Shown piece after piece: positions 51,126 through 52,337 of a stretch of 64,000 nucleotides of DNA. Origin of the DNA: Escherichia coli (GTDB lineage: Bacteria > Pseudomonadota > Gammaproteobacteria > Enterobacterales > Enterobacteriaceae). Where the stretch lies: the NCBI RefSeq assembly GCF_002854065.1, contig NZ_CP024147.1; one strand, written 5' to 3'. A program made the position numbers and the translations under genes. How positions within the stretch are numbered: position 1 is the first letter of the stretch; each line of letters opens with the position of its first letter. Under the pieces are notes generated by a model. It searched no databases and was not told the DNA's origin. It saw only the letters and a list, made by a program, of their open reading frames with translations.

Positions 51126-52337
51126 ATGAACTTATCCCTACGACGCTCTACCAGCGCCCTTCTTGCCTCGTCGTTGTTATTAACCATCGGACGCGGCGCT
51201 ACGCTGCCGTTTATGACCATTTACTTGAGTCGCCAGTACAGCCTGAGTGTCGATCTAATCGGTTATGCGATGACAATTGCGCTCACTATTGGCGTCGTTT
51301 TTAGCCTCGGTTTTGGTATCCTGGCGGATAAGTTCGACAAGAAACGCTATATGTTACTGGCAATTACCGCCTTCGCCAGCGGTTTTATTGCCATTCCTTT
51401 AGTGAATAACGTAGTGAATAACGTAGTGAATAACGTGACGCTGGTGGTGCTATTTTTTGCCCTTATTAACTGCGCCTATTCCGTTTTTGCTACCGTGCTG
51501 AAAGCCTGGTTTGCCGACAATCTTTCGTCCACCAGCAAAACGAAAATCTTCTCAATCAACTACACCATGCTCAACATTGGCTGGACCATCGGTCCGCCGC
51601 TCGGCACGCTGTTGGTGATGCAGAGCATCAATCTGCCCTTCTGGCTGGCAGCTATCTGTTCCGCGTTTCCCATGCTTTTCATTCAAATTTGGGTAAAGCG
51701 CAGCGAGAAAATCATCGCCACGGAAACAGGCAGTGTCTGGTCGCCGAAAGTTTTATTACAAGATAAAGCACTGTTGTGGTTTACCTGCTCTGGCTTTCTA
51801 GCTTCTTTTGTTAGCGGCGCATTTGCTTCATGCATTTCACAATATGTGATGGTGATTGCTGATGGGGATTTTGCCGAAAAGGTGGTCGCGGTTGTTCTTC
51901 CGGTGAATGCTGCCATGGTGGTTACGTTGCAATATTCCGTGGGCCGCCGACTTAACCCGGCTAACATCCGCGCGCTGATGACAGCAGGCACCCTCTGTTT
52001 CGTCATCGGTCTGGTCGGTTTTATTTTTTCCGGCAACAGCCTGCTATTGTGGGGTATGTCAGCTGCGGTATTTACTGTCGGTGAAATCATTTATGCGCCG
52101 GGCGAGTATATGTTGATTGACCATATTGCGCCGCCAGGAATGAAAGCCAGCTATTTTTCTGCCCAGTCTTTAGGCTGGCTTGGTGCCGCGATTAACCCAT
52201 TAGTGAGCGGCGTAGTGCTAACCAGCCTGCCGCCTTCCTCGCTGTTTATCATCTTAGCGTTGGTGATCATTGCTGCGTGGGTGCTGATGTTAAAAGGGAT
52301 TCGTGCAAAACCGTGGGGGCAGCCCGCGCTTTGTTGA
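51126..52337 (+). CDS. ydeE: MFS transporter carrying an in-frame (VNNV)x3 repeat
   Basis: 403-aa ORF, 8 aa longer than the recalled 395-aa K-12 protein; contains the 3x12-bp tandem repeat. Confidence 0.85.
   Translation: MNLSLRRSTSALLASSLLLTIGRGATLPFMTIYLSRQYSLSVDLIGYAMTIALTIGVVFSLGFGILADKFDKKRYMLLAITAFASGFIAIPLVNNVVNNVVNNVTLVVLFFALINCAYSVFATVLKAWFADNLSSTSKTKIFSINYTMLNIGWTIGPPLGTLLVMQSINLPFWLAAICSAFPMLFIQIWVKRSEKIIATETGSVWSPKVLLQDKALLWFTCSGFLASFVSGAFASCISQYVMVIADGDFAEKVVAVVLPVNAAMVVTLQYSVGRRLNPANIRALMTAGTLCFVIGLVGFIFSGNSLLLWGMSAAVFTVGEIIYAPGEYMLIDHIAPPGMKASYFSAQSLGWLGAAINPLVSGVVLTSLPPSSLFIILALVIIAAWVLMLKGIRAKPWGQPALC
51401..51436 (+). repeat. perfect tandem repeat, 3 copies of AGTGAATAACGT, in frame inside ydeE
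   Basis: read directly from the sequence; encodes VNNVVNNVVNNV. Confidence 0.95.

Follow-up and report, generated by a model that had tools for sequence, protein, structure and literature searches.

The window, a 64-kb stretch of Escherichia coli DNA analysed over its whole length, carries ydeE on the plus strand at 51126-52337 (stop codon included) as an intact 403-residue reading frame for an MFS efflux transporter, a dipeptide exporter. The gene eamA lies upstream on the minus strand (50032-50952), and mgtS, mgtT and dgcZ follow downstream. A megablast search matched 'efflux MFS transporter YdeE', the RefSeq name of the matching gene, in 5,414 of 5,426 complete E. coli genomes. The product is identified as YdeE by its near-identity to the K-12 protein, by the conserved neighbourhood and by an MFS fold together with the MFS signature: it is the same gene as that of the 395-residue K-12 YdeE, with the same neighbours (eamA-ydeE-mgtS-mgtT) and the same predicted MFS fold. 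PF07690 is precomputed for the 395- and 399-residue forms of YdeE, and LmrP (6t1z) is a distant match in the PDB.

The K-12-derived ydeE spans 1,188 bp and encodes 395 residues with a single VNNV motif, and relative to it the window copy has an insertion of exactly 24 bases and, outside the insert, 17 SNPs. The insertion gives the window allele eight extra residues (VNNVVNNV) at the predicted periplasmic turn between TM3 and TM4, and four further amino-acid differences lie outside it (T91P, E338G, V373I and R388K, in window numbering). Codon 91 (51396-51398), directly before the turn, reads Thr (ACT) in K-12 and Pro (CCT) in the window; Pro91 is also found in most E. coli alleles seen and in Citrobacter homologues, which makes the K-12 threonine the unusual state. 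The preliminary description had attributed the difference between 403 and 395 residues to two extra repeat units, and the K-12-derived protein, with one VNNV and exactly 24 fewer bases in its gene, agrees with this. It had also named reference YdeE sequences with three copies as grounds for refutation, which the comparison of copy number across E. coli genomes did not bear out, the K-12-derived reference having one.

[quoted passage not shown] YdeE has been linked to arabinose efflux as well (PMC3429515), and deletion of ydeE lowered survival in acid and raised survival under protamine relative to the wild type (PMC9600279).

Tandem Repeats Finder reported a perfect 12-bp tandem array within ydeE at 51400-51436 on the plus strand (period 12, 3.1 copies, 100% matches, score 74), with the unit TAGTGAATAACG repeated 3.08 times; read directly from the window, positions 51401-51436 are equivalently AGTGAATAACGT repeated three times with zero mismatches. 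Counted from the ORF start at 51126, the corresponding codons occupy 51402-51437 on the plus strand and encode residues 93-104 as (VNNV)3, with GTG AAT AAC GTA in the first two units and GTG AAT AAC GTG in the third, so that a synonymous GTA valine codon arises at each junction between units. The array stays in frame, and the 403-residue product reads GFIAIPL-VNNV-VNNV-VNNV-TLVVLFF around it. The sequence, the reading frame and the repeat search thus all support the perfect in-frame three-unit repeat that had first been described. It is the sole perfect tandem array that Tandem Repeats Finder found in the 64-kb window. The expected chance occurrence of 24 consecutive period-12 matches is about 4^-24 per position, by simple arithmetic, or about 2e-10 per 64 kb, and the array can therefore not be put down to chance. 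Judged from its sequence, it is a real and ordinary slippage-type repeat.

The other match of the repeat search was an imperfect direct repeat of 21 bp in 2.5 copies (48775-48826, 71% matches), which sits in the marC-marR intergenic region, that is, in the mar operator/promoter region.

Copy-number alleles and the lineage that carries them

To place the window allele in a series, we built proteins with one to seven VNNV units on it and looked each up by exact sequence. Counted in blocks or contigs, which are not independent isolates and whose frequencies mostly reflect clonal sampling, this yielded 1,359 blocks for one unit (395 residues), 70 blocks for two (399), 162 blocks for three (403), 7 contigs for four (407), 2 contigs for five (411) and 2 contigs for six (415), a tally of exact products, to which alleles that differ by a further substitution or whose gene is disrupted do not contribute. 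The exact-product look-up returned no record of a seven-unit, 419-residue protein, and none of a two-unit version of the K-12-type (T91) allele, which was sought as a sign of independent origin. Multi-copy records came from NCBI assemblies, from Logan assemblies of public read sets and from ENA metagenome assemblies, and every multi-copy locus that we fetched shows, at the DNA level, an array made up of perfect units and bounded by identical flanks. Other lengths of YdeE on record (397, 401, 406, 410, 414, 417, 435 and 442 residues) were considered and set aside, as they carry no extra VNNV units; compared in full, the 397-residue form has a two-residue insertion elsewhere and the 401-residue form an altered, longer C-terminus.

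Among complete genomes the expansion is rare, with at least two units in only two of 5,426: CUWW06 with three and strain 100416 with two. A 340-bp query centred on the array, for which a match of 340 bp corresponds to three units, 328 bp to two and 316 bp to one, gave 340 bp in CUWW06 and 328 bp in strain 100416, and every other full-length match listed was 316 bp long. A 44-nt probe that is unable to seed on the one-copy sequence, run on the 5,426 complete E. coli genomes, matched exactly the same two. These two are also the only complete genomes to match the window at 100.0% identity throughout the adjoining 22 kb upstream; the next-closest complete genome reaches 99.3% there, and none of the complete genomes carries a one-copy array on the same haplotype, the next-closest flanks being at most 99.3% identical. 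Two adjacent units were absent from the representative genomes of 100,044 bacterial and archaeal species (one genome per species) and from JGI metagenome contigs, and these empty scans leave no evidence for the array outside this one E. coli lineage. As far as these genomes and contigs go, the repeat is restricted to one E. coli lineage, and essentially all other E. coli are single-copy. A full-text literature search found no paper linking ydeE to a tandem repeat, and the published GECM-10 MLVA loci are given without genome positions; the mentions of CUWW06 found in the literature concern its plasmid.

The flanks of the array bear out a common haplotype. Over about 2.9 kb, compared without gaps and with exceptions to the SNP counts at loci where IS1 or an indel breaks the comparison, multi-copy loci lie 0-1 SNP from the window (one metagenome scaffold lies 4 away), against 30-80 differing positions in one-copy loci that encode the same protein. 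Across window positions 41126-62337, a flank of about 21 kb rather than whole genomes, multi-copy loci show 0-19 SNPs against the window (11-19 in one tally) and one-copy loci encoding the same protein show 213-295, or 1.1-1.5%.

Within this haplotype, the 21-kb SNPs divide the carriers into groups that differ in copy number internally. The sub-clade marked by 51026T (in part also by 47151T, 44504A and 60040T) holds three (L006), four (L027, L029, L030), five (L031) and six (L033) units; the sub-clade marked by 45841C, 45944A and 56368C holds two (L012) and five (L032); the window-type haplotype holds three (the window and L002-L005) and four (L028); and a group with many private SNPs has two (L013-L015). 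Because different copy numbers (3/4/5/6, 2/5 and 3/4) occur inside the same flank-SNP sub-clades, copy number has changed several times independently. Where positions 53249 and 60046 retain the outgroup state, the groups have two units, except for the five-unit locus L032, and the derived group has at least three, a distribution that fits stepwise growth. The difference between two and five units within one sub-clade needs several steps or a multi-unit event. The four-copy metagenome scaffold L011 carries three SNPs typical of other haplotypes, which may reflect recombination or a chimeric assembly.

These results bear directly on two earlier suggestions. The reading of the locus as a slipped-strand or VNTR locus gains from the presence of two, three, four, five and six perfect units on one haplotype and from changes within its sub-clades. 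The proposed use as a strain marker holds within the one lineage and fails species-wide, since only two of the 5,426 complete genomes have at least two units, and inside the lineage it is subject to homoplasy.

The wider surroundings of ydeE show further features. An exact 28-bp match to dif, the E. coli chromosome dimer-resolution site, lies at 13639-13666 on the minus strand, from which it follows that the window spans the replication terminus; ydeE is about 38 kb from dif. CUWW06, the closest complete genome, carries two tandem copies of a filamentous-phage-like prophage of about 9.6 kb exactly at the dif point, with a zot-family gene, a GspD/pIV-like secretin and a II/X replication protein, and the window has none. 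Two IS1 copies that are 100% identical and in the same orientation lie at 5528-6297 and 20452-21221, the latter interrupting sequence that is continuous in CUWW06, in or beside an ECSE_1600-family autotransporter gene. Among relatives, CUWW06 has IS1 within ydeE (overlap of 9 bp, 52098-52106), in L006 it follows position 52435 and in L005 position 53330, and these differing sites make IS1 look active in the carrier lineage. The gene lsrA (30796-32330) is split into two overlapping ORFs at 30796-31602 and 31596-32330, and the CUWW06 annotation marks it as frameshifted. The same annotation records a frameshift in a diguanylate cyclase gene, which in the window lies at 40202-41461 and encodes 419 residues against 472 in other E. 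coli. To judge from such reading frames, several genes near ydeE are degraded in the carrier lineage.

The repeat in the predicted transporter fold

We predicted the one-copy and three-copy proteins with AlphaFold2, using a family alignment of 82-83 sequences. In the one-copy model (395 residues, mean pLDDT 89.9), TM3 spans residues 72-92 and TM4 residues 96-124, with a break at 93-95 formed by V-N-N. In the three-copy model (403 residues, mean pLDDT 92.1, pTM 0.89), which is all-helical, TM3 extends over residues 72-96 (51339-51413, plus strand), its last four residues being the first repeat unit; the predicted periplasmic turn V97-N98-N99 (51414-51422, plus strand) falls inside the middle unit; and TM4 covers residues 100-132 (51423-51521, plus strand), its first five residues (100-104) coming from the repeat. 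The native VNNV is thus predicted to form the TM3-TM4 hairpin turn, and the two extra units to lengthen each helix by about one turn. Over residues 91-100 the pLDDT is 85 in the three-copy model versus 96 in the one-copy model.

The motif-A positions G64 and D68, in the loop between TM2 and TM3, are nearly invariant across the family alignment. In MFS topology the TM2-TM3 loop with motif A is cytoplasmic, and the TM3-TM4 turn should therefore face the periplasm. The preliminary description, which had the repeat inserted into a transmembrane region, was only approximately right: in the AlphaFold2 models the insertion is not in the membrane core and lies at the periplasmic turn, with the helices on either side extended outward.

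The length of this turn is otherwise well kept. It is unchanged in 80 of the 82 other aligned sequences, which comprise the one-copy allele together with 81 homologues of as little as about 20% identity. The Citrobacter homologues, like more distant ones, show a single four-residue turn. An insert of 8 to 20 residues at this position would accordingly be unusual for the family, as far as the aligned sequences indicate.

Origin of the repeat and its relation to known repeat loci

The locus is very probably a lineage-restricted in-frame VNTR that arose by a founding duplication and then changed by replication slippage, as its alleles and flanks suggest. The ancestral gene would have contained TAGTGAATAACG once, as the coding sequence for the VNNV turn that joins TM3 to TM4. 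One haplotype of E. coli would then have undergone a single, rare tandem duplication that placed two identical 12-bp units side by side. The one-copy context, CCTT-TAGTGAATAACG-TGACG, offers a flanking periodicity or microhomology of just 1 nt (T...T), and this near-absence of microhomology fits a founding duplication seen on a single haplotype in a set of over 5,400 complete genomes. Two units would provide a substrate for slipped-strand mispairing during replication, through which whole units may be gained or lost, giving two, three, four, five and six copies with a net tendency upward. Each unit would lengthen the TM3-TM4 helical hairpin by VNNV at its periplasmic end, with the frame kept in every allele. 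The SNPs of the 21-kb flank suggest that the step from one to two units occurred once, that from two to three once, and that further, mostly upward steps followed. Because slippage needs two identical adjacent 12-mers, the locus can vary in the carrier lineage while it is invariant elsewhere. We infer slippage as the mechanism from this pattern of alleles itself.

MLVA typing of E. coli/Shigella and of other pathogens uses in-frame coding VNTRs that change by slipped-strand mispairing. The ydeE array shares with them perfect head-to-tail units beyond chance, a unit length that is a multiple of three, whole-unit changes between near-identical strains, preserved flanks and frame, and change that is recurrent and homoplastic. 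Unlike them, it is polymorphic in one haplotype, the single unit in the rest of the species being unable to slip; its unit is short (12 bp) and its array small (2-6 units); and its setting is the hairpin of an inner-membrane transporter, not a surface protein or one rich in repeats.

In phase-variable contingency loci, simple-sequence repeats turn genes on or off through frameshifts or promoter spacing. The ydeE array resembles them in its presumed mechanism, slippage of replication over a short tandem repeat, and in recurrent, reversible change. In contrast to them, its 12-bp unit never shifts the frame, its two- to six-copy alleles encode full-length protein and the array occupies coding sequence, not a promoter. 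On/off switching is absent because the unit keeps the frame in every allele, and a phase-variable on/off locus is thereby ruled out, with an in-frame unit inside the ORF and full-length products from two to six copies.

Functional effect and significance

With respect to transport, the expanded repeat is most likely a neutral to mildly deleterious passenger, and its effect is probably small. A stronger effect, in which the expanded ydeE would be non-functional or strongly impaired and the gene decaying under relaxed selection, with the repeat as one lesion among several, seems unlikely to us. The turn length that is fixed in 80 of the 82 other aligned sequences makes an insert of 8 to 20 residues atypical, and ydeE carries an independent second lesion in both complete carrier genomes, an IS1 insertion in CUWW06 (L001, 3001-4988) and, in strain 100416 (L007, 1376-2575), the nonsense mutation G64T (G22*), although two of two disrupted carriers make a very small sample. 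The split lsrA and the shortened diguanylate cyclase gene show that nearby genes in the window are damaged too, relatives show IS1 insertions at three separate positions around ydeE, and loss of the gene need not carry a cost, as the ydeE deletion outlives the wild type under protamine (PMC9600279). Against such decay, intact ORFs are on record for the 403-residue form in 162 blocks and for the 399-residue form in 70 blocks. The insert also faces the periplasm, away from motif A and from the helix cores, and AlphaFold2 models it with good confidence as one further turn on each helix, the pLDDT at residues 91-100 being 85 against 96 in the one-copy model.

That copy number is itself selected, as an in-frame rheostat tuning the activity or specificity of YdeE much like a contingency locus without the frameshift, is improbable. 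Copy number has moved repeatedly and mostly upward within one haplotype, and YdeE acts on dipeptide export and on acid and cationic-peptide survival, all of them open to selection in the gut; yet the upward bias is also expected from mutation alone if short arrays are more stable than long ones, most carriers have two or three copies in seemingly clonal groups with higher numbers rare, and basal translation of YdeE in K-12 is very low (PMC9299463). If copy number did act as a rheostat, the dipeptide exporter would be increasingly altered or even inactivated as the periplasmic TM3-TM4 hairpin lengthened step by step. This would provide the lineage with heritable, reversible variation in peptide or acid tolerance, and the expansion would stem from selection and not from mutation bias.

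An assembly or sequencing artefact, for which only the general caution that repeats can be mis-assembled speaks, or an import by recombination from a species with a longer YdeE loop, is effectively refuted: the identical array recurs across numerous independent assemblies (NCBI and Logan) as well as in one complete genome and, at 37 bp, should be shorter than typical reads, which makes assembly collapse or expansion very unlikely, while zero of the 100,044 species-representative genomes have two adjacent units, homologues have a four-residue turn, the extra units exactly copy the native neighbouring sequence and the rest of the gene is an ordinary E. coli ydeE.

Read as a lineage-restricted coding VNTR, the finding overturns no current understanding. 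It offers a cheap marker, sizeable by PCR, that identifies one E. coli lineage and subdivides it by two to six copies, with its phylogenetic use limited by homoplasy. It also provides a natural case of a slippage threshold, in which a single copy is invariant species-wide and the sequence becomes mutable only after one founding duplication. Finally, the alleles form a natural series of four-residue extensions of an MFS hairpin, which could be used to probe how far the TM3-TM4 turn tolerates changes in length.
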